From contig WSZX01000292.1 of NCBI GenBank assembly GCA_013139935.1, positions 1 through 27,099 on the forward strand: a stretch of 27,099 nt of DNA. The letters are read 5' to 3'. Below are positions 4,358-25,241 of the stretch, in pieces. A program made the position numbers and the translations under genes. How positions within the stretch are numbered: position 1 is the stretch's first letter; every line of letters begins with the position of its first letter. The notes under the pieces were generated by a model, which ran no database searches, was not told the DNA's origin, and worked only from the letters and a program-made list of their open reading frames with translations. Origin of the DNA: Ardenticatenales bacterium (GTDB lineage: Bacteria > Chloroflexota > Anaerolineae > Promineifilales > UBA4811).

Positions 4358-5557
4358 ATGAGCGATAAACTTGACTTTATTCGTGATGAGCTGGAGGAGA
4401 TGCATCGCAGCAAATCGTACATCAACATGCGGACGATGGAATCTCCGGCCGACGGCTGGATGGTGGTGGACGGCCGGCGAGTGCTCAATTTCTGCACCAA
4501 TAACTACCTGGGCCTGGCGAACCATCCAAGGCTGAAGAAAAAGGCGCAGGAGGCGATCGACAAGTGGGGCGTTGGTCCGGCCGCCGTGCGCACGATCGCC
4601 GGCACGCAGGCGCTTCACCTGGAATTCGAACGTCGAATGGCGGAGTTCAAAGGGGTGGATTCCTCTTTGCTGGTGCAGTCTGGTTTTTGCGCGAACCAGG
4701 CGGCTATTCCAGCACTGGTGGGACGGAACAGGGCGACCGGAGAGCAGGATGTCATGTTTTCCGACCGGATGAATCACGCCAGTATCATTGATGGAGCAAG
4801 GCTCTCCGGGGCCAAGATCGTTGTGTTTGAGCATTGCGACCCGGTCAGCCTGGAGAAGGTGATCGAGGAGAACCTGCCCAAATATCGTCGGGGCCTGATG
4901 GTGACCGACGGGGTGTTCAGCATGGATGGCGATATTGCACCGCTGGACAAGCTCTATGCCGTTGCGGAAAAGCACGGCGTGATAACGATGGTGGACGACG
5001 CCCACGGCGAAGGAGTTCTGGGACGGGGCAAGGGCATCGTGGCCCACTTTGGACTGCACGGCAGATTCGACATTGAGGTTGGTACCCTTTCCAAGGCATT
5101 CGGCGTGATGGGGGGTGTCATTGCGGGCAAGCAGGAGGTGGTAGACTATATCAGGCAAAAGGCACGGCCCAACCTCTTTTCCAGCGCCATCACCCCGGGC
5201 GACACAGCCGCCTGCCTGGCGGCGGTGGAGATGCTGGACGAATCAGAGGCGCTGGTCGACAAACTGTGGGCGAATACTGGCTATTTCCGATCAAGGATGG
5301 AAGAGCTCGGATTTGACACCGGCCGCACCGAGACCCCGATTGTGCCCATTATCATCGGCGATGTCGCCAAGGCCAAAGAGTTCTCCACCCGCTTGTTCGA
5401 GCAAGGCGTTTTCGCGATGGCGCTTGGCTTTCCCACCGTTCCTCGCGGCACAGCCCGCGTTCGGGTGATGAACACGGCTGCCCACACAGAGGAAGATCTG
5501 GACAAAGGCTTGGAGATTTTTGCCCGAGTTGGCCGGGAACTCGACGTTATATCCTGA
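4358..5557 (+). CDS. kbl: Glycine C-acetyltransferase (2-amino-3-ketobutyrate CoA ligase), PLP-dependent alpha-oxoamine synthase
   Basis: LNFCTNNYLGLANHP, NHASIIDG, TDGVFSMDGD, DDAHG and GTLSKAFG (PLP lysine); SD GAGGA before ATG 4358; directly follows tdh. Confidence 0.88.
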   Translation: MSDKLDFIRDELEEMHRSKSYINMRTMESPADGWMVVDGRRVLNFCTNNYLGLANHPRLKKKAQEAIDKWGVGPAAVRTIAGTQALHLEFERRMAEFKGVDSSLLVQSGFCANQAAIPALVGRNRATGEQDVMFSDRMNHASIIDGARLSGAKIVVFEHCDPVSLEKVIEENLPKYRRGLMVTDGVFSMDGDIAPLDKLYAVAEKHGVITMVDDAHGEGVLGRGKGIVAHFGLHGRFDIEVGTLSKAFGVMGGVIAGKQEVVDYIRQKARPNLFSSAITPGDTAACLAAVEMLDESEALVDKLWANTGYFRSRMEELGFDTGRTETPIVPIIIGDVAKAKEFSTRLFEQGVFAMALGFPTVPRGTARVRVMNTAAHTEEDLDKGLEIFARVGRELDVIS

Positions 5558-5583
5558 TTTTCTCCGGCATTAATCAGCCATAT

Positions 5584-5625
5584 GATCAGGCAGGGGCGAC
5601 CCGGGAGGGTCGCCCCTGCCTGATC
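5584..5625. repeat. Perfect 19-bp inverted repeat with GGGA loop (REP-like hairpin, possible terminator)
   Basis: GATCAGGCAGGGGCGACCC-GGGA-GGGTCGCCCCTGCCTGATC, 26 nt after the kbl stop. Confidence 0.85.
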
Positions 5626-5642
5626 CTGGGTACCGCACCGGG

Positions 5643-5768
5643 GAGGGTGTGGAAAATAGGTCCTCCGCGGGGGGAGAGAGATGCAGGGGTCGGAATCCTG
5701 CCCCCAACCAGATTCCCTTTTGAGGCGCGGAACTGCATGGGGAACCGTGTCCTTTTTTCGACGCCATC
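5643..5768. mobile_element. MITE-like element A with imperfect 14-bp terminal inverted repeats
   Basis: Left end GAGGGTGTGGAAAA (5643-5656); right end TTTTCGACGCCATC (5755-5768, 11/14 match). The same end motif recurs at 19218-19535. Confidence 0.45.
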
Positions 5769-5798
5769 CACGGTACACTTGGCTTTCTCTCTGCTCCA

Positions 5799-5807
5799 TG
5801 CTACAAT
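5799..5807 (+). promoter_or_regulatory. Extended -10 promoter (TG-C-TACAAT) for the DUF151 gene
   Basis: TGCTACAAT lies 36 nt upstream of ATG 5844; SD GAGGAG at about 5834-5839. Confidence 0.5.
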
Positions 5808-5843
5808 CTTTGGCGGAGCCTTCCAGCACACGCGAGGAGCTTT

Positions 5844-6335
5844 ATGGTAAGAGTGGTCATTAGCAGCATCCGGGTGAGCCTGATGTCTCCGCATCGCGTG
5901 ATTCTTCTCAAAGAGGTTGACAGCGAGCGCCAGCTACCCATCTGGATTGGACCCTTTGAGACGGATGCTATTGTGGTCGAGTTGCAGCAGATCGAGACGG
6001 CCCGGCCGCTCACCCACGATTTGCTCAAAACAGTGATCACCGAGCTTGGCGGAACGGTGTCGCACGTGACGGTGAACGCACTGCGAGATGACTATTTCAC
6101 CGCCAGGGTTATCATTGACAAGAACGGAGACGTGCTGGAGATCGACTCGCGCCCCTCCGATGCGATTGCTCTGGCGGTTCGTGCCCAGGTTCCCATATTC
6201 GTGTCCGAAGAGGTGATGGAGGAGGCAGGCGTATTGCCGGAAGAGGAGATCTCATCGGCCGGCGACATTGACGTCCCTGATGAAGAGTTGGACGTTTACC
6301 ACGACTTTCTGGACACGCTGGATCTGGATGATTGA
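5844..6335 (+). CDS. Bifunctional nuclease family protein (DUF151, DNase/RNase)
   Basis: RVILLKE...LPIWIGPFETDAI...RPLTHDLL...IDSRPSDAIALAVR...PIFVSEEV, followed by an acidic tail. Confidence 0.9.
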   Translation: MVRVVISSIRVSLMSPHRVILLKEVDSERQLPIWIGPFETDAIVVELQQIETARPLTHDLLKTVITELGGTVSHVTVNALRDDYFTARVIIDKNGDVLEIDSRPSDAIALAVRAQVPIFVSEEVMEEAGVLPEEEISSAGDIDVPDEELDVYHDFLDTLDLDD

Positions 6336-6528
6336 TCCTTGCGGATAGTGTGTGAGCGCTGCGCCTCATGCTATCGTGGGTAGCTGAAGGGAGTTGGTCC
6401 CGCGGCGCGTGGCGATCTTTGGCGCCCTGTCAGCACGAGTTCCGCCGCACCGGGCGTAACCTGAAGGTACCTGGTACTGTCAGGTTGGGCGCACAGTCCA
6501 GAGGGGCTCACTGTAGGAGCACGAGGAA

Positions 6529-8337
6529 GTGAAGATGGGTAAAGCCAATCCGGCCCCGAGCCTGACGCCGGATAGAGTTTCCCCGAGCAACGTCGAGGCC
6601 GAAGAGGCGGTTCTGGGGTCCGTTCTAATCAACCCGGACGCGCTGCTAGATGTGGCCACGTTTCTCAGAGCGGAAGACTTTTTTCTGGTAAAGAACGGCT
6701 GGATATGGGACGCTATCCTGGCGGTTCAAGAACGCCGTGAACCCATTGATTTCCTGACCGTCACCAACGAGCTGGAGAGCCAGCAACGACTGCAGGAAGC
6801 TGGCGGGCAGGTCTACATCAGCCGGCTGATGGATGCAGTTCCCAGCGCCATTCATGCCGAGGCGTATGGCCGAATTGTGGAACGCACCTCGCTGCGCCGG
6901 CGCCTCCTGGGCGCTGCCAGTGAGGTTGCTCAACTGGCCTGCAATGAAGCGGAGAACATTGAGGTAGTTCTAGACAAATCGGAGCAGGCGCTCTTTGGCG
7001 TCTCTGAAAGGCGGCTGACTCGGGATCTGCAGCCTATCAAGCGGGTGGTGAACGAGTATTATGATCGGGTCAAACGGCTCTCAGAGCATGATGAGCTTCT
7101 CATGGGGGTCCCTACCGGGTTTCGGGTTTTGGACGAACTCCTGGGTGGGCTGCAGCGCTCCGATCTGATCATCGTCGCCGGCCGACCGGGGATGGGCAAG
7201 ACAGGGCTGCTCCTCAACATCGCGCTCAACTGTGCCCGCCATCATCGCATGCGGGTGGCCGTCTTTTCCCTGGAGATGAGCGCCGAACAGGTGGTGGGAC
7301 GGCTGGTGGCGGCCGAGACCGGCATCGACTCGCAACGACTGCGGCGCGGCGCGTTGCGCCAGGACGAATGGCCTCTGTTCACTGAAGCGACCGGGCGGTT
7401 GGCTGACACCCTGATCTTCATCGATGACACTCCCTCTATCACTCCGTTGCAGTTGCGAACCAAATGCCGCCGGTTGTACGCCGAGTATGGGATAGACCTG
7501 ATTGTGCTGGACTATCTCCAGCTCATGAGTGGCGACTTTCGCAGTGAGAACCGAGTGCAGGAAATAAGCTACATCTCACGTCACCTGAAAGGGATGGCGC
7601 GAGAGATGAACGTACCCGTCCTGGCGGCGGCCCAACTCTCCCGCGCCGTCGAGCAGCGCCAAGACAAACACCCCATGCTGTCAGACCTGCGCGAATCAGG
7701 CTGCCTGGCAGGGGACACCCTGGTGCAATTGGCGGATGGGAATTGGGCGCCGATAAGGGAGCTGACCAAGAACGGCGCCTCGTTCAGCATCAGGGCGCTG
7801 AACCAGGAGACCTGGAAACTGGAATCCGTCGAAGCGCGGAAGGCGTGGAGAACTGGCACCAAGCCGGTATTGAGGCTCACCACGGGTCTGGGTCATAGCA
7901 TTCGGGCCACGGGCAATCATCGATTCAGCACCCGTTGCGGCTGGAGACGACTCGATGGTCTGGAAATCGGCGAGTACATCGCGTTGCCCCGGCCGCTCGG
8001 AATCAGCCAGAGCGTGTCGAGCGAGGTGCATTGGGACCAGGTGTTTGCTATCGACCCTGACGGGATGGAGGACGTGTACGACCTGGAAGCGCCGAGACAT
8101 CACAATTTCGTCGCCAACGATATCATCGTTCACAACAGCATCGAGCAGGACGCGGATGTGGTGATGTTTATTTACCGGGACGAATACTATACCAAGAACG
8201 AGACTGAAAGCCCCAACATTGCTGAAATCGTCATCGCAAAGCACCGCAACGGCCCTACAGGCAGGGTGGACCTCTATTTCCAGGAAAAGTTAGCCCAGTT
8301 CCGCGAGTTGGAGCGCCATCAATTCGCCCCATCGTGA
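6529..8337 (+). CDS. dnaB: Replicative DNA helicase DnaB, intein-containing precursor (about 457 aa after splicing)
   Basis: PSNVEAEEAVLGSVL, GVPTGF, GRPGMGKT (Walker A), FSLEMS, LDYLQLM, QLSRAVEQR and DLRESG|intein|SIEQDAD, AKHRNGPTG. Start is GTG 6529 or ATG 6535. Confidence 0.97.
   Translation: MKMGKANPAPSLTPDRVSPSNVEAEEAVLGSVLINPDALLDVATFLRAEDFFLVKNGWIWDAILAVQERREPIDFLTVTNELESQQRLQEAGGQVYISRLMDAVPSAIHAEAYGRIVERTSLRRRLLGAASEVAQLACNEAENIEVVLDKSEQALFGVSERRLTRDLQPIKRVVNEYYDRVKRLSEHDELLMGVPTGFRVLDELLGGLQRSDLIIVAGRPGMGKTGLLLNIALNCARHHRMRVAVFSLEMSAEQVVGRLVAAETGIDSQRLRRGALRQDEWPLFTEATGRLADTLIFIDDTPSITPLQLRTKCRRLYAEYGIDLIVLDYLQLMSGDFRSENRVQEISYISRHLKGMAREMNVPVLAAAQLSRAVEQRQDKHPMLSDLRESGCLAGDTLVQLADGNWAPIRELTKNGASFSIRALNQETWKLESVEARKAWRTGTKPVLRLTTGLGHSIRATGNHRFSTRCGWRRLDGLEIGEYIALPRPLGISQSVSSEVHWDQVFAIDPDGMEDVYDLEAPRHHNFVANDIIVHNSIEQDADVVMFIYRDEYYTKNETESPNIAEIVIAKHRNGPTGRVDLYFQEKLAQFRELERHQFAPS
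7702..8136 (+). mobile_element. DnaB mini-intein (145 aa, class 1, no homing endonuclease)
   Basis: Begins CLAGDTLVQL (Cys1), has block B ATGNH (T70/H73) and block F DVYDLEAPRHHNFVAND, ends IIVHN with +1 Ser. Inserted between LRESG and SIEQD; no LAGLIDADG motifs. Confidence 0.96.
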
Positions 8338-9044
8338 TGCGAGGATTCAGCGGGTTTCCCGCCGGTAGACTGAAAACCATAGCGCTGCCGGCCCTCTTTT
8401 TCAGCGAGTTGCTGCCGGTGATTGACAACCTGGCAGAACTGCGAGTGACGCTTTTCGTGTTCTGGGCCTTGCACCAGAAGGAAGGACGAATTCGCTATCT
8501 GCGGCTTGAGGATTTCTTGGTTGACGACCTCCTCATGGAGAGTCTGGCAAAACAGCGCCGTACGGCTGAAGCATTGGTCAACGATGCGTTGGAACGCGCT
8601 GTGGCGCGTGGGACTCTGCTGCAGATCAGGGTGGAAGGCACGGCCGATGCTCAAGACCTCTATTTCTTGAACACCGAGCGGGGCCGAGCGGCCGTGGACG
8701 GAATCACGCGCGGAGAATGGCGTCCAACGGGCGACCCAACCGAACCGATAAGCCTGATGGCTGAACGACCCAACGTGTTTGTTCTCTATGAACAGAACAT
8801 CGGTCCTCTGACTCCCATGATTGCCGAGGAACTGAGGGATGCCGAGGAGAGCTATCCGATTGCGTGGATAGAGGAAGCCATCAAAGTGGCAGTGAACAAC
8901 AACGCGCGCAAGTGGGCCTATATCTCGCGTGTGCTAGAGCGTTGGAAAGCAGAAGGAAAACATGATGCGACCAGTGGAGGAGATACTGCCAGGGATCGCC
9001 GCCGATACATTGAAGGCGAGTATGGAGACATCATCCAGCATTGA
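8337..9044 (+). CDS. DnaD-domain (DnaB_2) primosome protein
   Basis: C-terminal NVFVLYEQNIGPLTPMIAEEL...WIEEAIKVAVNNNARKWAYISRVLERWKAEG is the DnaD domain signature. ATG overlaps the dnaB stop (TGATG); GTG 8334 is an alternative start. Confidence 0.88.
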   Translation: MRGFSGFPAGRLKTIALPALFFSELLPVIDNLAELRVTLFVFWALHQKEGRIRYLRLEDFLVDDLLMESLAKQRRTAEALVNDALERAVARGTLLQIRVEGTADAQDLYFLNTERGRAAVDGITRGEWRPTGDPTEPISLMAERPNVFVLYEQNIGPLTPMIAEELRDAEESYPIAWIEEAIKVAVNNNARKWAYISRVLERWKAEGKHDATSGGDTARDRRRYIEGEYGDIIQH

Positions 9045-10389
9045 GAGCGAGTGGCGGACGGCAGTGGCAGCGGAGAAGGCAGAGGCTGAAAAGCCCCCCT
9101 GCCCCGTTTGCAGCGGCATGGGTTTTGTTGTCCCTGATGTGCCGTTGGGCCACCCAGAGTACGGCCGGGCAACCCCCTGCGAGTGCAGGAGGAGAGATAT
9201 CAAGGTGCGGCAGATGGCGGGCTTGCGGGCCGCCAGCCAATTGGAGCTTTTGGAGGATCAGACCCTGGAGAGCTTTATTCCGGAGGGGATCGGTCTGACC
9301 GAGGCCAAACGGCGCAACCTGCGGATGGCATACGAACGGTGCGTGGAGTTTGCGATGGATCCGTCAGGATGGATTCTACTGCGCGGTGGCTATGGCTGTG
9401 GGAAGACCCATCTCGCGGTCGCCATTGCGAATAACCGGATCGCCCAAAACCGGCCGGCGATATTCACTACCGTGCCCGACCTGCTCGACTTTCTGCGGTC
9501 CTCATTTGCCCCGAACTCGCAGGTTGGTTTTGACGAGCGTTTCGAACAGATTAGGTCGGCCCCCCTTTTGATTCTGGACGACTTTGGCACTGAGAGCGGC
9601 ACCCCCTGGGCGCGGGAAAAGCTCTTTCAGATATTAAATCATCGCTACAATGGCCGGTTGCCCACCGTCATCACCACCAATTATGAACTGGAAGAGATTG
9701 AACTGCGAATGCGCTCCCGACTGGTGGACCCAGGCCTGGTGCACATTGTCACGATCCTGGCACCGGATTTTCGGCGCGCCGGGGTGGATCAGGAGCAATC
9801 AGAGCTTTCCAGCCTGAACCTGCATTTCGACCAGACCTTTGCTTCTTTTGACTTGCGCCAGGGCGCATTGCCCCGGGCAGACCAAGAGAACCTGCAACGA
9901 GCCTATGAGATAGCCAGCAGCTACGCGCAGGGTCCCGAGGACTGGTTGGCGTTCACCGGCCCTCATGGTTGCGGGAAGACGCACCTGGCGGCCGCCATCG
10001 CCAATCACTGGAGGCAGCAGGGATACCCGGTGCTGTTCGTAGGTGTGCCTGATCTGCTGGACGATCTGCGCGCTACCTTTAGCCCCGACAGCACTACCAG
10101 CTATAGTAAGCGATTCAAGGAAATCCGCGCCGCGCGCTATCTGATACTGGATGATCTGGGCATGGAGAGCGCCACCAACTGGGCTCGGGAAAAGCTGTAT
10201 CAGATATTTGACTACCGCTACAATGCGCGCCTGCCCACCGTCATAACCACAGCGACTCCCTTTGAAGAGCTGGACAGCCGTCTGGCGAGTCGTGTTCTGG
10301 ATCCCACCCATTGTACGCCCTTTGCCATCATGGCCCCCTGGTATCGAGGGGGAAAAACGCGGGGCGCTCGAAAGCGATCTGCTCGCTAG
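9022..10389 (+). CDS. DnaC/DnaI/IstB-like helicase-loader ATPase with two tandem AAA+ domains
   Basis: N-terminal Cys cluster CPVC...CEC; domain 1 GGYGCGKT (9385-9408) and LILDDFGTE; domain 2 GPHGCGKT (9958-9981) and LILDDLGME; both contain WAREKL.QI..RY...LPTVITT. The start at ATG 9022 is inferred. Confidence 0.88.
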   Translation: METSSSIESEWRTAVAAEKAEAEKPPCPVCSGMGFVVPDVPLGHPEYGRATPCECRRRDIKVRQMAGLRAASQLELLEDQTLESFIPEGIGLTEAKRRNLRMAYERCVEFAMDPSGWILLRGGYGCGKTHLAVAIANNRIAQNRPAIFTTVPDLLDFLRSSFAPNSQVGFDERFEQIRSAPLLILDDFGTESGTPWAREKLFQILNHRYNGRLPTVITTNYELEEIELRMRSRLVDPGLVHIVTILAPDFRRAGVDQEQSELSSLNLHFDQTFASFDLRQGALPRADQENLQRAYEIASSYAQGPEDWLAFTGPHGCGKTHLAAAIANHWRQQGYPVLFVGVPDLLDDLRATFSPDSTTSYSKRFKEIRAARYLILDDLGMESATNWAREKLYQIFDYRYNARLPTVITTATPFEELDSRLASRVLDPTHCTPFAIMAPWYRGGKTRGARKRSAR

Positions 10390-14485: not shown

Positions 14486-15076
14486 TCAGCGCTTCTGTAG
14501 CGAGAGGAACTCGGACGCAGCTACCCCAGCCAGAATCCCGGCCGGCACGCCGGCAATCATTTCTCCTTGCCGCCATGTGTTGACCCGGCCCAACACTTCC
14601 ACCGTGATCATCTTGCCGCCAATGAAATCGCCAAGCATCCACACCATGGCACCCAGAAACCCTCCGGCGACCACCGAAATCAGCAGGGCGACCAGGCCTA
14701 TCATTCCCCTTTTGAACACGAGTGCCCCTGCCCCCAACCAGGTTGCCAAAACAGAGCCAACCAGCGCGCCGTTGAGCATAGTCGGAAGTGAAAAACGCGC
14801 TCCGAGGCCAGCGGACCCGGTCGTTTGTCCCGCAAACGCGCCCAGCCCCGTGAGCAGGAGCGCCCCAACAATAGCTCCTCCGATCGCCCAGAAGATCAGT
14901 TCGTCGACATAGTCAAACAGGAGGATAAGCATCAATATGGCAGGTGCGGAAATCATCCCACCCAATATTCCGCCGCTCACATCCGCAAAGCCAAGCCTTC
15001 GCGCGATGATCCCCACCGCTGATCCTAGGACTGCACCCAGGATTACCCACAAAATGACTCTGCCCACATTCCTCAT
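14486..15076 (-). CDS. Gly-rich multi-pass membrane protein of unknown function (196 aa)
   Basis: About six hydrophobic segments with GxxxG-type repeats. SD CAGGAGGG precedes ATG 15076 (MRNVGRVILW), so the start is trimmed from the ORF-track value 15232. Confidence 0.75.
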   Translation of the reverse strand: MRNVGRVILWVILGAVLGSAVGIIARRLGFADVSGGILGGMISAPAILMLILLFDYVDELIFWAIGGAIVGALLLTGLGAFAGQTTGSAGLGARFSLPTMLNGALVGSVLATWLGAGALVFKRGMIGLVALLISVVAGGFLGAMVWMLGDFIGGKMITVEVLGRVNTWRQGEMIAGVPAGILAGVAASEFLSLQKR

Positions 15077-15181
15077 TCTGTTCCCTCCTGGATTCTCAAC
15101 TGGTGGCCAGCACGCCCTTGGAGTGTCGAAGAACAGGCAAGGTGACATTTTCTCTGTTATTGGGTCCGTTCCTGGGACAGT

Positions 15182-15211
15182 ATTATAGTCCAAACGCGCC
15201 GGTTTGTGCAA
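15182..15211 (-). promoter_or_regulatory. Sigma70-type promoter TTGCAC-N18-TATAAT for the membrane protein gene
   Basis: On the minus strand, TTGCAC is at 15211-15206 and TATAAT at 15187-15182. Confidence 0.55.
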
Positions 15212-15610
15212 CACGGTTCGCCTGATCACCACCAGGCCTTCTTGTCGGTAAATGAGATTCCGGCGTGCCCGCGAAGCCTGTCACCGGTAGGGGTGGAAAT
15301 CGGGCCGGCCGCCAGGGCAGAGAGATTGGAGGGGCGGAATCCCACCGCTGCCGGTTTTTCATGCTATCCTTATTGGTCTGATACTCCGCAGCTTGCTGCG
15401 GGGAAGCTGATCAGCAGGGCGGAACGGCCGAGGGAGCACCTTTCTTGCGACACTCTCCCATCGTTTCCTTGATGACACTTGTCCTGGCGGCAAGTGCGCT
15501 TTGTCACTGACTGCTGTCCAGCAGGTGAATCATACTTGCAGCGCGACCTTCCGGTGGGACCATGATCTCGCCTGAGAAGGCCTGATGGTGGTATACGAAC
15601 ACGAGACACG

Positions 15611-15865
15611 ATGGAACCGGTTTCGGACCCGACAGATCAGGCCGCGAGCAAACCCAAACCAGCCCTTCCTCGAGGGAGGGTGGTCATTTTCCGCAAATGG
15701 TGCAAAGAGTGTGGCCTGTGTATTGCCTTTTGTCCGCGCGGAGTCCTGGGTTCGGCTGAGGATGGAAGCACCATTGTTGTTAACCCCGATGAATGCACGG
15801 CCTGTCTCTGGTGCGAGCTCCATTGCCCGGACTTTGCCATCACAGTGAAGCACATCAACGAATGA
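15611..15865 (+). CDS. korD: 2x[4Fe-4S] ferredoxin, delta subunit of 2-oxoacid:ferredoxin oxidoreductase
   Basis: CKECGLCIAFCP and CTACLWCELHCPDFAI; first gene of the oxidoreductase cluster. Confidence 0.88.
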   Translation: MEPVSDPTDQAASKPKPALPRGRVVIFRKWCKECGLCIAFCPRGVLGSAEDGSTIVVNPDECTACLWCELHCPDFAITVKHINE

Positions 15866-15883
15866 ACGAATGAACGAATTAAC
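15857..15883 (+). repeat. Short tandem repeat (AACGAATG, about 3.4 copies) at the korD stop
   Basis: AACGAATG AACGAATG AACGAATT AAC read directly from the sequence. Confidence 0.8.
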
Positions 15884-15925
15884 TAGTGGCTGTCGCTCGG
15901 TCGGTTGGTTTGTACGGAGTGCTGC

Positions 15926-17050
15926 ATGACCATGCCTCGAATGATGCAGGGGAATGAAGCTTGCGCGGCCGGCGCGATCGCGGCCGGGTGTCTGTTTTTT
16001 GGCGGTTATCCCATCACCCCCTCGACGGATATCGCAGAACACCTGGCGCGCGAGCTTCCCCGTGTAGGAGGTGTGTTCATCCAGATGGAAGACGAGATTG
16101 CGAGCATGGCCGCCGTCATTGGGGCATCGATTGGCGGAGCCAAGGCGATGACTGCCACAAGCGGCCCTGGATTCAGCCTGATGCAGGAGAACATCGGCTA
16201 TGCCGCAATGACCGAAGTGCCATGTGTGGTGGTGAACGTGATGCGACTGGGCCCGAGTACCGGGCGGCCGACGAGCCCTTCGCAGGGGGATGTGATGCAG
16301 GCTCGTTGGGGTTCCCATGGTGACCATCCCATCATTGCCCTTGCCCCCGCCTCGGTACTAGAGTGCTTTGAGATGACCGTGCGTGCCTTTAATCTCTCGG
16401 AGCGGTATCGCATTCCGGTGATTGTGCTGATCGATGAGGTGGTGGGGCACATGCGGGAGAAGGTGATCTTGCCCCCACGGGAGGATATCAAGGTGCTCGA
16501 GCGGCTGAGGCCGAGCGAACCGCCTGAATGGTACAAGCCGTACGGCAGTTCGCCGAGCGATGTGCCGCCATTGGCCCCATTTGGCTCCGGTTACCGCTAT
16601 CACATCACGGGTCTGCACCACGACGAGGCTGGGTTTCCGACGAATCGGGTGAATGAAGTCCGACCATGGACCCGCCGTATCTTTCGCAAGATCAAGGCGA
16701 ATGTACACCGCATAGCACGGTGTGAAACAGACGGCGTCGAAGACGCACGAACCGTGATTGTTGCCTATGGATCAGTTGCTCGCGCTGCCAGCGAAGCGAT
16801 CAAGACGGCCCGGGCCAAGCGGCGGAAAGTAGGACTGTTACGATTGCAGACCCTGTGGCCCTTTCCTACTCGCACGGTGGACGCCGTCTGCCGCGAGGCC
16901 AGGCGGGTCATTGTGCCGGAAATGAACCTGGGCCAGATGGCGATTGAGGTGGAGCGGATTGTTGGCGATCGGAAGGTGCGCCGCGTGAACCGGATCGACG
17001 GAGAGATGATCACCCCGCGGGAGATCCTGGACGCAATAGAGGGCAAGTAA
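15926..17050 (+). CDS. korA: 2-oxoacid:ferredoxin oxidoreductase alpha subunit
   Basis: QGNEA, GYPITPS, QMEDE, TATSGPGFSLMQE, GPSTGRPT, TGLHHDE and VPEMNLGQ. The 2-oxoacid substrate cannot be fixed from motifs. Confidence 0.92.
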   Translation: MTMPRMMQGNEACAAGAIAAGCLFFGGYPITPSTDIAEHLARELPRVGGVFIQMEDEIASMAAVIGASIGGAKAMTATSGPGFSLMQENIGYAAMTEVPCVVVNVMRLGPSTGRPTSPSQGDVMQARWGSHGDHPIIALAPASVLECFEMTVRAFNLSERYRIPVIVLIDEVVGHMREKVILPPREDIKVLERLRPSEPPEWYKPYGSSPSDVPPLAPFGSGYRYHITGLHHDEAGFPTNRVNEVRPWTRRIFRKIKANVHRIARCETDGVEDARTVIVAYGSVARAASEAIKTARAKRRKVGLLRLQTLWPFPTRTVDAVCREARRVIVPEMNLGQMAIEVERIVGDRKVRRVNRIDGEMITPREILDAIEGK

Positions 17051-23414: not shown

Positions 23415-24143
23415 TCAGAGATTGCGGTAATCAATCTCAACCTGGTAATCGGGTACCACGTGGACGCCAGTGACGATGAGCCACATCTTGCCCTGGAATC
23501 CCCGGCTGAGGCCCAAGGCCAGGTAGACCTCCTCGGCCGGGAGCCGCCGCAGCAGCGCGTCCTCTTCCATCCTGAGTTCTCCCCCCTTTTCTCCCAACCA
23601 GCTCCGTCCCAGGGCTCGCCACTTGATATCTGTGACCGGGAGTCCTCGCGGCGAGTTTGCCTGTGGGTGACAGGTGCCACTCAGAGTGAAGCCGATGCGA
23701 GCTTCATACTTTAGCGAGTAGGGATCGAGGGTGAAGTGAGCCCAGAGGCGATCCGACCGGACCAGGCACAGGGAGCGAGATGGGTTTCGGCCCAGCACCT
23801 CTTCAGCGGCCCGGTCGAGGTGCTCTGCCAAAAAGCGGGCGCGGCGCTCGCCCTCCAGGCGTCGCAGCAAGCGAGGGCGGTGGTAGATGAAATCGGTGAT
23901 CCAGTCTTCGGTGTGGGGCGGGATGGGGCGGCGCCTCAACAGTTGCAGTTCGACGACATCGCCTAGCTGAATGACCCGCCCCTGGGCATCGGTGAGGTCG
24001 CCCAGCAGCAGGCTCGAGCGCTCCTTGATCGGGCGCACCCAGCTCAAGCGGCTGGCCGGGTGGGCTTGGTGGACAAGGCCGGCCGTACAAACGCCGCTGA
24101 GCATACGGGTCATTGACAAGACCAGAATCTCCTGAGCCGGCAT
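23415..24143 (-). CDS. Dual OB-fold domain protein (DUF488-associated)
   Basis: Pattern ILVLSMTRMLSGVCTAG...WVRP...GDVVEL...PPHTEDW...SL...VTDIKW...LALGLS...LIVTGV matches my recollection of the dual-OB family found beside DUF488 genes. SD AGGGAG is present. Family name not verified by search. Confidence 0.65.
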   Translation of the reverse strand: MPAQEILVLSMTRMLSGVCTAGLVHQAHPASRLSWVRPIKERSSLLLGDLTDAQGRVIQLGDVVELQLLRRRPIPPHTEDWITDFIYHRPRLLRRLEGERRARFLAEHLDRAAEEVLGRNPSRSLCLVRSDRLWAHFTLDPYSLKYEARIGFTLSGTCHPQANSPRGLPVTDIKWRALGRSWLGEKGGELRMEEDALLRRLPAEEVYLALGLSRGFQGKMWLIVTGVHVVPDYQVEIDYRNL

Positions 24144-24157
24144 CGGGGCTCCCTGTG

Positions 24158-24604
24158 CTAGCCTTTGAGGTGGACCACAGCCAGGTCAGAGAAACGGTCG
24201 GCCCAATACTCGGCAACCAGGCGCCGGTGACATTGGTCGGGCGCCGGCTCTGAACAGAGCAAGCAGACCGCCCCGTGGCGAGAGAGGATGTCGCGCCCGA
24301 TGGCCTCGGTCGGCCGCTCTACCAGTGTTTGGTTGAAGCGCTTCTCGTAGGCGACCCAGTCCTTGTCCTGACGGTAGGCATCTAGGGTCTCGGTGGTGGG
24401 GGCCAGGTCAGTATGGTGTTCGTAGGCGATGCCAAACCCTTGGCGCAGCAGATAGGCGAGGTCGTCACGCTTGGCATAGCCGCACAGTTGCGACGTGTTG
24501 CGCAGCCGGATGTCAATGACTGCATCCACGCCAGCCTCACGCAACAGGCTAATGAATCGGGACAATGGCTTGCGCTGAAAACCAATGGTGTAGATGGTAG
24601 GCAG
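24158..24604 (-). CDS. DUF488 family protein (second paralog), probable CTG start
   Basis: (M)PTIYTIGFQRK...DAVIDIRL...YEHHTDLAP...LLCSEPAPDQCHRRLVAEY. The conserved IYTIG motif lies upstream of the ORF-track TTG start (24565); SD GGGAGG is 6 nt before CTG 24604. Confidence 0.85.
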   Translation of the reverse strand: MPTIYTIGFQRKPLSRFISLLREAGVDAVIDIRLRNTSQLCGYAKRDDLAYLLRQGFGIAYEHHTDLAPTTETLDAYRQDKDWVAYEKRFNQTLVERPTEAIGRDILSRHGAVCLLCSEPAPDQCHRRLVAEYWADRFSDLAVVHLKG

Positions 24605-24677
24605 GCGGTTCCTCCCTTGAAGATGCGGCTGGATGAGGTTTCTGTTTTCCGGAACCCTGTCTGATTGTACTCTGATT

Positions 24678-25178
24678 CTAGAATAGCGTCAGTTGCTTCA
24701 ATTCCGGGTGCGCCTCGACAGTATCACCGTCAGGGCGGATGTGGATCACGCGGGCGTCTCGGGCCAGTAGCTCGGGAGTGACCAGCAAGGCGCGGTGACA
24801 GCGGCGATGGTCGCCCTCGCTGCACATCATGGCGACGGTGTTGGTGCGGGCCAGTTCCAGCAACTGCCCCACGCCGGCTTGAAAACCGGGAGTTGCTGCG
24901 ATAAGGTCATAGTTGGGATGTTCATCGGCCTCTTGGGTGTCGTCTGACGGCCGGCCGCCGAGTGTATCACCCATGAAGAGATAGGTCAGGCCGGCCTCTG
25001 TCAGGGATTGGACGAGTGTCTCGCGATTGAAGTGGGGCACCCAGCGGCTGTAGGGCTGGCTCCGCACATCTGCCAGAGTGGTAATCCCATGGCGCTGCAA
25101 GAGGGCGACAAAGGTCTCCGGCTCGTGGTCGCTGTGGCCGATCGAATAGATGATGGGTGAGTTGGTGGCAGCCGTCAT
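24678..25178 (-). CDS. DUF488 family protein with C-terminal QLTLF motif
   Basis: IYSIGHS, LADVRSQPYSR, LGGRP and MCSEGDHRRCHR; ends in KQLTLF. Confidence 0.9.
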   Translation of the reverse strand: MTAATNSPIIYSIGHSDHEPETFVALLQRHGITTLADVRSQPYSRWVPHFNRETLVQSLTEAGLTYLFMGDTLGGRPSDDTQEADEHPNYDLIAATPGFQAGVGQLLELARTNTVAMMCSEGDHRRCHRALLVTPELLARDARVIHIRPDGDTVEAHPELKQLTLF

Positions 25179-25212
25179 TGCGGATGATTACCCCTATCTA
25201 GCCAGTGGGTGG

Positions 25213-25241
25213 ATTATAGCCGGGCGGGGCGATATGGCCAA
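25213..25241 (-). promoter_or_regulatory. Sigma70-type promoter TTGGCC-N17-TATAAT for the DUF488 operon
   Basis: On the minus strand, TTGGCC is at 25241-25236 and TATAAT at 25218-25213, 34 nt upstream of ATG 25178. Confidence 0.55.

Follow-up and report, generated by a model that had tools for sequence, protein, structure and literature searches.

A permuted PDC-M45-type operon of two DUF488 paralogues and a DuOB protein in an Ardenticatenales genome, possibly encoding a clamp-tethered, RecQ-partnered DNA-processing complex

Introduction

The closest described relatives of the operon considered here are entries in the PADLOC catalogue. PDC-M45, which corresponds to the three-family cassette CAS_00153, is listed in supplementary table 8 of Payne et al. 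(bioRxiv 10.1101/2024.01.29.577857), and is one of 145 PDC candidates, which the authors themselves called untested; they emerged from a 'guilt-by-embedding' screen, which looked for genes lying within BREX, DISARM and type I restriction-modification systems (10.1101/2024.01.29.577857). Pfam in turn holds models for the DuOB and DUF488-N3a families. The operon lies in a stretch of 27,099 nucleotides (contig WSZX01000292.1 of assembly GCA_013139935.1, from an Ardenticatenales bacterium of the Chloroflexota), and this whole stretch is called the window below. It encodes two DUF488 paralogues followed by a DuOB (dual OB-fold) protein.

DUF488 is a large and widespread family with, to our knowledge, no known activity, and both DuOB and PDC-M45 are known from computation alone. 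A literature search for PDC-M45, and for DUF488 together with rhodanese or DuOB, returned no paper mentioning PDC-M45 and no functional study. The module is thus already in the catalogues, and the window copy is a diverged member of it rather than a new kind of system. What does the module do? Judging from sequence, we propose with moderate confidence that the operon is a permuted PDC-M45-type member encoding a clamp-tethered, RecQ-partnered complex that processes DNA ends or lesions.

The operon and its catalogued relatives

The operon runs from position 25,241 to 23,415 on the minus strand, and consists of three co-oriented open reading frames (ORFs) in the order A-type DUF488, B-type DUF488-N3a, DuOB, where A-type denotes proteins like gene 1 and B-type those like gene 2. 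Its features are as follows.

25213-25241, minus strand: match to a sigma-70-type promoter, TTGGCC-17-TATAAT, about 35 nt 5' of gene 1 (pattern match only)
24678-25178, minus strand: gene 1, predicted A-type DUF488 enzyme of 166 residues (Pfam PF04343, PADLOC PDC-M45B)
24681-24695, minus strand: C-terminal QLTLF of gene 1, a putative pentapeptide of the beta-sliding-clamp-binding type (conserved motif)
24611-24618, minus strand: Shine-Dalgarno sequence AAGGGAGG, 6 nt 5' of the gene 2 CTG (read from the sequence; same in two independent assemblies of the lineage)
24158-24604, minus strand: gene 2, B-type DUF488 (DUF488-N3a) of 148 residues if it starts at CTG (PF04343, PF22751, PDC-M45C)
23415-24143, minus strand: gene 3, DuOB (dual OB-fold) protein of 242 residues (Pfam PF22557, PDC-M45A)

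Genes 1 and 2 are separated by 73 nt and genes 2 and 3 by 14 nt, the ATG of gene 3 coming after the stop of gene 2. The putative promoter agrees with the consensus at 10 of 12 positions, and the region has four promoter-like sites where shuffled sequence would yield 0.6. In metatranscriptome contigs from cold-seep and marine-sediment runs, parts of genes 1 and 3 are found with no more than one mismatch, which is not proof of transcription.

All three proteins match the PDC-M45 models, with very different strengths. Gene 1 matches PDC-M45B at E 1e-49 (residues 9-161 on profile positions 5-157 of 204) and gene 2 matches PDC-M45C at E 2.4e-47 (profile 2-144 of 145), while gene 3 matches PDC-M45A at E 2.8e-9 and only over residues 3-87 (profile 4-88 of 230). 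The three families are therefore the same as those of the catalogued cassette, M45A being DuOB, M45B the A-type DUF488 and M45C the B-type DUF488-N3a; the differences are that the genes of the window are arranged B-C-A rather than in the listed order A, B, C, and that its DuOB resembles M45A weakly, through the N-terminal 85 residues alone. The listed order is seen in loci L048-L056, and one of these, L054, with the order DuOB-A-B, matches PDC-M45A, B and C at 4e-83, 2e-74 and 4e-71. These strong matches indicate that DuOB-A-B is the archetypal arrangement and the A-B-DuOB operon of the window a diverged variant. Two further differences, both taken up below, are that the sub-clade of the window copy is distinguished by a terminal QLxLF motif and by a TPR-RecQ dedicated to the triad, and that no defence system surrounds the window copy.

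A second PADLOC entry, PDC-M19, consists of a DUF488 fusion protein and an OB-fold partner. It shares DUF488 with the operon (genes 1 and 2 match PDC-M19A at 6e-13 and 2e-15), but is a two-gene system with a single DUF488 and no paralogue pair.

Conservation and surroundings of the triad

DuOB is present in 49 of the 401 genomes sampled from the phylum, and the triad in 5 of 41 relatives. A related-locus search with DuOB alone gave three loci; we used family searches of whole genomes, taking about 19 kb around 38 DuOB matches, which with metagenome loci made a sample of 45 loci. An A-type and a B-type DUF488 gene adjoin DuOB in about 32 of them, A always preceding B, in the order A-B-DuOB or DuOB-A-B, and DuOB is by itself in eight. 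The association of the two DUF488 genes with DuOB is far from chance. Within the sub-clade to which the window copy belongs, the proteins are 56-90% identical and constant in length.

When 359 ORFs neighbouring the triad were clustered, no family apart from RecQ appeared in more than three loci, and each cluster reaching three was confined to one three-locus set. On one side the window copy has genes for an RpiR regulator and a peptide ABC transporter, on the other Zincin_1, YkuD transpeptidase and PGA_cap genes, and this arrangement (RpiR / triad / Zincin_1-YkuD-PGA_cap) recurs in other assemblies of the lineage. None of the ten neighbours of the window copy has a meaningful PADLOC match. Elsewhere, some copies lie beside restriction or defence genes: an Eco57I-type methylase and an SNF2/PLD helicase in L057, HsdM in L017, and JetD with an AAA_15/21 ATPase in L009, where an N6_N4 methylase is also inserted. 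Other copies have housekeeping genes for neighbours, SpoVR and DUF444 among them.

Some individual neighbours in these loci deserve mention. In L011 an AlkZ-like DNA glycosylase gene (5552-6805) precedes the triad, and in L008 a gene for an ADP-ribosylglycohydrolase of 614 residues (14886-16730) follows RecQ; each was seen once, and either may be incidental. In L066 (2810-8003, plus strand) the DUF444 and SpoVR genes adjoining the triad both carry inteins with LAGLIDADG endonuclease domains.

A probable RecQ helicase partner

The one recurrent neighbour, found in the sub-clade closest to the window operon, is a long RecQ helicase (about 720-1,080 residues in the sample), encoded on the same strand after DuOB in L008, L011, L015, L073, L075, L081, L082 and L083. 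The copies scanned with Pfam have an N-terminal TPR region. In L009 inserted genes part RecQ from DuOB. A TM1586-type nitroreductase-like gene stands between DuOB and RecQ in L008 (10686-11606) and in L009 (8795-9664), where it is followed by a methylase gene and another gene of no recognised family.

In addition to this linkage, DuOB and RecQ form a single protein in L064, L068, P0129 (1,047 residues) and P0214 (900 residues), and there DuOB occupies the N-terminal position that the TPR region has in the unfused RecQs. Two further proteins, P0212 and P0262, are fusions of DuOB with HRDC.

The same association is seen genome by genome. Among 40 relatives, full-length orthologues of TPR-RecQ (more than 800 bits, over about residues 50-1,000) are found in exactly G001, G002, G003 and G021, the four carriers of the triad; the remaining 36 have helicase-core matches of at most 300 bits, or none at the cut-off. 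The triad and TPR-RecQ thus co-occur, a pattern that is suggestive rather than a formal test, since related genomes are not independent.

How does the window copy, with no helicase gene at its side, fit this picture? No RecQ adjoins or is fused with its DuOB, which is followed by the convergent Zincin_1 gene. In G001, of the same genus, the RecQ orthologue (1,010 residues) is encoded on a different contig, where neither DUF488 nor DuOB comes within 8 kb of it. Together these arrangements indicate that in this genus the helicase gene is separated from the triad, the triad having its own putative promoter. Searches of the window genome, a metagenome-assembled genome in 535 contigs that is 79% complete, with the RecQ protein and with RecQ_Zn_bind found no RecQ; its HRDC matches on contig C210 belong to a single frame of 432 residues, which contains two such domains. 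The RecQ-linked or RecQ-fused operons of Anaerolineae and other phyla (L008, L009, L011, L015, L073, L081-L083, P0129, P0214) resemble the window operon in their orthologous proteins (57-73% identity for DuOB), in the order A-B-DuOB and in a clamp-type tail, and differ from it in that the window has no adjacent RecQ and that its gene 2 begins with CTG rather than ATG. That the triad of the window belongs to an Anaerolineae-type sub-clade working with a dedicated TPR-extended RecQ, the gene for which has been relocated in this genus, strikes us as an evenly poised proposition.

These results change the picture given by the preliminary description, which had been made from the sequence of the window by itself. 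It had called the module self-contained, and this holds locally in the window; it fails as a general statement, given that relatives have RecQ joined or fused to the triad and co-occurring with it. The links to DarT-like and DNA-glycosylase genes that it mentioned are not recurrent in the 45 loci, one AlkZ-like gene having been seen, in L011, and no defence island surrounds the window copy. Its proposal of a DNA-directed role stands, and we regard such a role as the best reading of the triad.

A clamp-type tail on the A-type protein

The C-terminus of gene 1 reads HPELKQLTLF. Peptides of the QL[SD]LF type are said to be the bacterial consensus for binding the beta clamp, and the tail of gene 1 would be of this kind. 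The 120 nearest cluster representatives (56-91% identity) mostly share this ending: QLxL[FLMIW] is the C-terminus of 96, in 61 of them exactly QLSLF, and 117 have the motif in their last 12 residues; the residues just before the motif are variable.

In a wider set, the sequences of the two paralogues from genomes of the phylum, a clamp-motif-like pentapeptide is found in 29 of 33 A-type tails and 0 of 34 B-type tails, while in shuffled tails the mean count is 2.0 and the highest 7. The A-type variants include QLSLF, QLGLF, QLTMF, QxDLF, QMDMF and NGDLF. This count is weakened by the fact that the regular expression for the wide set was composed after the sequences had been seen, and related sequences are not independent.

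Perhaps, then, the A-type protein reaches DNA as bacterial clamp-binding repair and replication proteins do. It would share with them a C-terminal QLTLF or QLSLF beyond a variable linker, but the attached domain is a DUF488 enzyme and not a polymerase, ligase or mismatch protein. The gene for the clamp itself, DnaN, was located in the window genome (L088).

The two DUF488 paralogues

Both paralogues match Pfam DUF488 (PF04343) far above the cut-off of 22.2 bits, gene 1 at 81 bits (E 1.4e-22) and gene 2 at 80.6 bits (E 1.9e-22). The model for the 'active' subclade DUF488-N3a (PF22751, cut-off 27) is matched by gene 2 at 42.5 bits and by gene 1 at 21 bits, below the cut-off. No NCBIfam model matches genes 1, 2 or 3, and for genes 1 and 3 the PDB contains no protein related in sequence.

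The motifs IY(S/T)IG, D-x-R and C-S-E-x5-C-H-R are found in both paralogues. Across the 33 A-type and 34 B-type sequences, the G of IYTIG, D-x-R and C-x-E-x5-C-H-R are conserved without exception. The invariant residues are G14, D37, R39, P42, S44, G70, G74, Y90, C119, E121, C127, H128 and R129 in the A-type (numbered on gene 1) and G8, D31, R33, Y61, H63, C117, E119, C125, H126 and R127 in the B-type (numbered on gene 2), P42, S44, G70, G74 and Y90 being additional invariants of the A-type.

In the AlphaFold2 model of gene 1 (predicted local distance difference test, pLDDT, 88.5, with low confidence in the C-terminal tail), a strand at 115-119 is predicted to end in C119 and a helix at 128-139 to begin with H128-R129. 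Foldseek finds nothing significant for this model in the PDB (best E 3e-3). The matches of highest probability (0.92-1.0) are Cdc14B, a plant phosphatase entry (4kyr/4kyq), a Sulfolobus protein tyrosine phosphatase (PTP) and PRL-1, at E 7e-3 or worse; CobU and SUMT methylase are also among the matches. DUF488 has reportedly been placed in the rhodanese-phosphatase superfamily, and the phosphatase-like matches fit that placement. The cysteine phosphatases of the PTP/rhodanese superfamily (Cdc14, PRL, the Sulfolobus PTP) would share with DUF488 the predicted fold and the position of the invariant Cys, which closes a strand and precedes a loop and a helix opening with His-Arg. There are clear differences, however. 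The classical C-X5-R signature is not kept, the Arg five residues past the Cys of gene 1 being unconserved and the spacing C-x7-C-H-R; DUF488 has in addition a second invariant Cys and an invariant Glu, and the fold matches are weak.

The probable CTG start of gene 2

The IYTIG motif of gene 2 is retained only if translation begins at the CTG at 24604-24602, as the first in-frame ATG, GTG or TTG is the TTG at 24565, a start that would remove it. The aligned start codon is ATG in all seven homologues checked and CTG in the window. The Shine-Dalgarno sequence before it is a strong one. L089 (ENA) and L090 (NCBI), two independent assemblies from this lineage, both read AAGGGAGG-AACCGC-CTG here as the window does, and the CTG is therefore a fixed feature of the lineage; an assembly error as its origin is ruled out. 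In a further contig of the lineage in ENA, 31 kb long, the gene caller shortened gene 2 to 121 residues. Judging from the conserved motif and the sequence upstream, gene 2 most probably starts at CTG 24604-24602.

The DuOB protein

Gene 3 matches Pfam DuOB (PF22557) at 57.1 bits (cut-off 27, E 3.3e-15), with residues 5-226 on profile positions 2-209 of 210, that is, over the full length of the model. In its AlphaFold2 model (pLDDT 94.9), each half is predicted to consist of strands 1-3, a helix and strands 4-5, the typical OB order. Its fold matches are nearly all OB proteins that bind single-stranded DNA (ssDNA), including RADX, CTC1, Oxytricha TEBP, baculovirus LEF-3, RPA, PriB, BRCA2 and SSBs, and they are weak: the best Foldseek E is 7e-3 and the best VIA-align Z 5.7, below the level that this tool takes as secure. 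Alignments of the N-terminal half with numerous ssDNA-binding OB domains have Z 3.3-4.2, and that of both halves with LEF-3 has the Z of 5.7, all below the secure level. A prediction of the complex of genes 1 and 2 with DuOB as partner scored 0.05 against a mark of 0.32, which counts neither for nor against binding.

Two variations were seen among the DuOB genes. One genus has DuOB in tandem, in the order DuOB-DuOB-A-B (L049:9286-10798, and a second match in G228, G254, G278, G317, G357 and G420). In L060 (9440-11023, plus strand) the DuOB frame extends to 527 residues with an NHL/beta-propeller match at about 350-490, which could reflect either a fusion or an ORF called too long.

The gene-level claims of the preliminary description have thus come through well. 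Three co-oriented genes do stand behind a single near-consensus promoter match, the two DUF488 paralogues keep their motifs and conserved cysteines, the third gene encodes a protein predicted to be of the OB type, and the triad recurs across genomes. The one correction concerns gene 2, which possesses the full motif set provided that it starts at the CTG.

Possible roles of the module

The binding and the chemistry that we infer for the module can be put together as follows. RecQ would open the duplex at gaps, stalled forks or blocked ends, and DuOB, judging from its fold and its fusions, would hold the exposed single strand or 3' end. The A-type DUF488 would be tethered to the beta sliding clamp through its conserved C-terminal QLTLF. 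The A- and B-type DUF488 proteins, with a predicted strand-Cys-loop-Cys-His-Arg-helix site like that of cysteine phosphatases, would then act on a phosphate-linked group of the DNA, which they would remove or transfer, perhaps a 3'-phosphate, a sugar-phosphate remnant or an ADP-ribose-type adduct.

In its most specific form, this scheme amounts to an undescribed pathway of repair or replication restart, in which a clamp-held DUF488 pair, DuOB and TPR-RecQ clean blocked ends or adducts at primer-template junctions. We advance this form tentatively, as a possibility on the unlikely side; if true, it would provide the first function for the large DUF488 family. Whatever the precise role, the pairing of paralogues, the clamp-type tail and the fusion and co-inheritance with RecQ narrow the function of DUF488 to a few testable options, and the same three features bear on whether PDC-M45 counts as a defence system. 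The window copy adds a natural case of an unlinked helicase gene and a fixed CTG start.

Several observations weigh against a clamp-tethered, RecQ-partnered DNA-processing complex. We found no biochemical or genetic data for any member of the module in the literature searched. The fold matches are statistically weak (Foldseek E 3e-3 or worse, VIA-align Z 5.7 at best), and the conserved Cys/Glu/Cys/His set is equally compatible with a metal site. The clamp pattern for the wide set was composed post hoc on related sequences, and RecQ was not found in the incomplete genome of the window. Finally, the distribution is patchy among relatives and across the phylum, the copies in L057, L017 and L009 adjoin restriction or defence genes, and PDC-M45 entered PADLOC by way of a copy embedded in a BREX, DISARM or type I restriction-modification system.

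These last three points are at the same time the substance of the main rival explanation, which is anti-phage defence, as the listing of PDC-M45 implies. The clamp tether and DuOB would in that case sense phage DNA under replication or gain access to it, and the DUF488 enzymes, together with RecQ in the loci that have it, would damage this DNA or block its replication. That all three proteins match models of a set of candidates defined by embedding in known defence systems speaks for this explanation, as does the occurrence of RecQ-family helicases in the defence systems Dpd and PsyrTA. PDC-M45 is nevertheless a computer prediction that our literature search did not find mentioned. In the sample no nuclease, toxin or membrane effector recurs, RecQ being the only family to do so beyond three-locus sets, and there is no defence gene near the window copy, where the synteny among ordinary genes is stable across the lineage. 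The 56-90% identity and constant length of the sub-clade proteins likewise count against it. We consider defence a serious contender, though a doubtful one.

Clamp-tethered enzymes might also act in a different way on new DNA, by writing or erasing a thio-, phospho- or sugar-linked mark as replication proceeds, which would make the module one of DNA modification and not of repair. For this clade, DNA-end processing has reportedly been predicted within nucleic-acid-modifying conflict systems. Two invariant cysteines 8 residues apart would suit thiol-relay or redox chemistry, and a methylase gene pair is inserted in the operon of L009. A system of this kind is nonetheless improbable, considering that no gene for donor synthesis or for a transferase recurs with the triad, that no restriction-like reader is present, and that partnership with RecQ suits repair better than marking.

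Least probable is that Cys-Glu-Cys-His forms a structural or catalytic metal site in proteins that act on RNA or a small molecule and have an indirect link to DNA. These four residues commonly bind zinc, the spacing departs from C-X5-R, CobU and SUMT methylase are among the fold matches, and OB folds bind RNA too. Against it stand the RecQ and HRDC fusions of DuOB, the clamp-type motif of the A-type protein and the predominance of ssDNA binders among the fold matches of DuOB.

Other features of the window

Two features were noted elsewhere in the window, both on the plus strand. At 6529-8337 there is a DnaB helicase gene with an intein, the Pfam Intein_splicing match covering residues 400-536 inside DnaB_C. 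Just 3' of dnaB, at 8962-10389, lies a gene for a protein of 475 residues with two IstB/DnaC-type AAA+ stretches (about 137-254 and 286-445).

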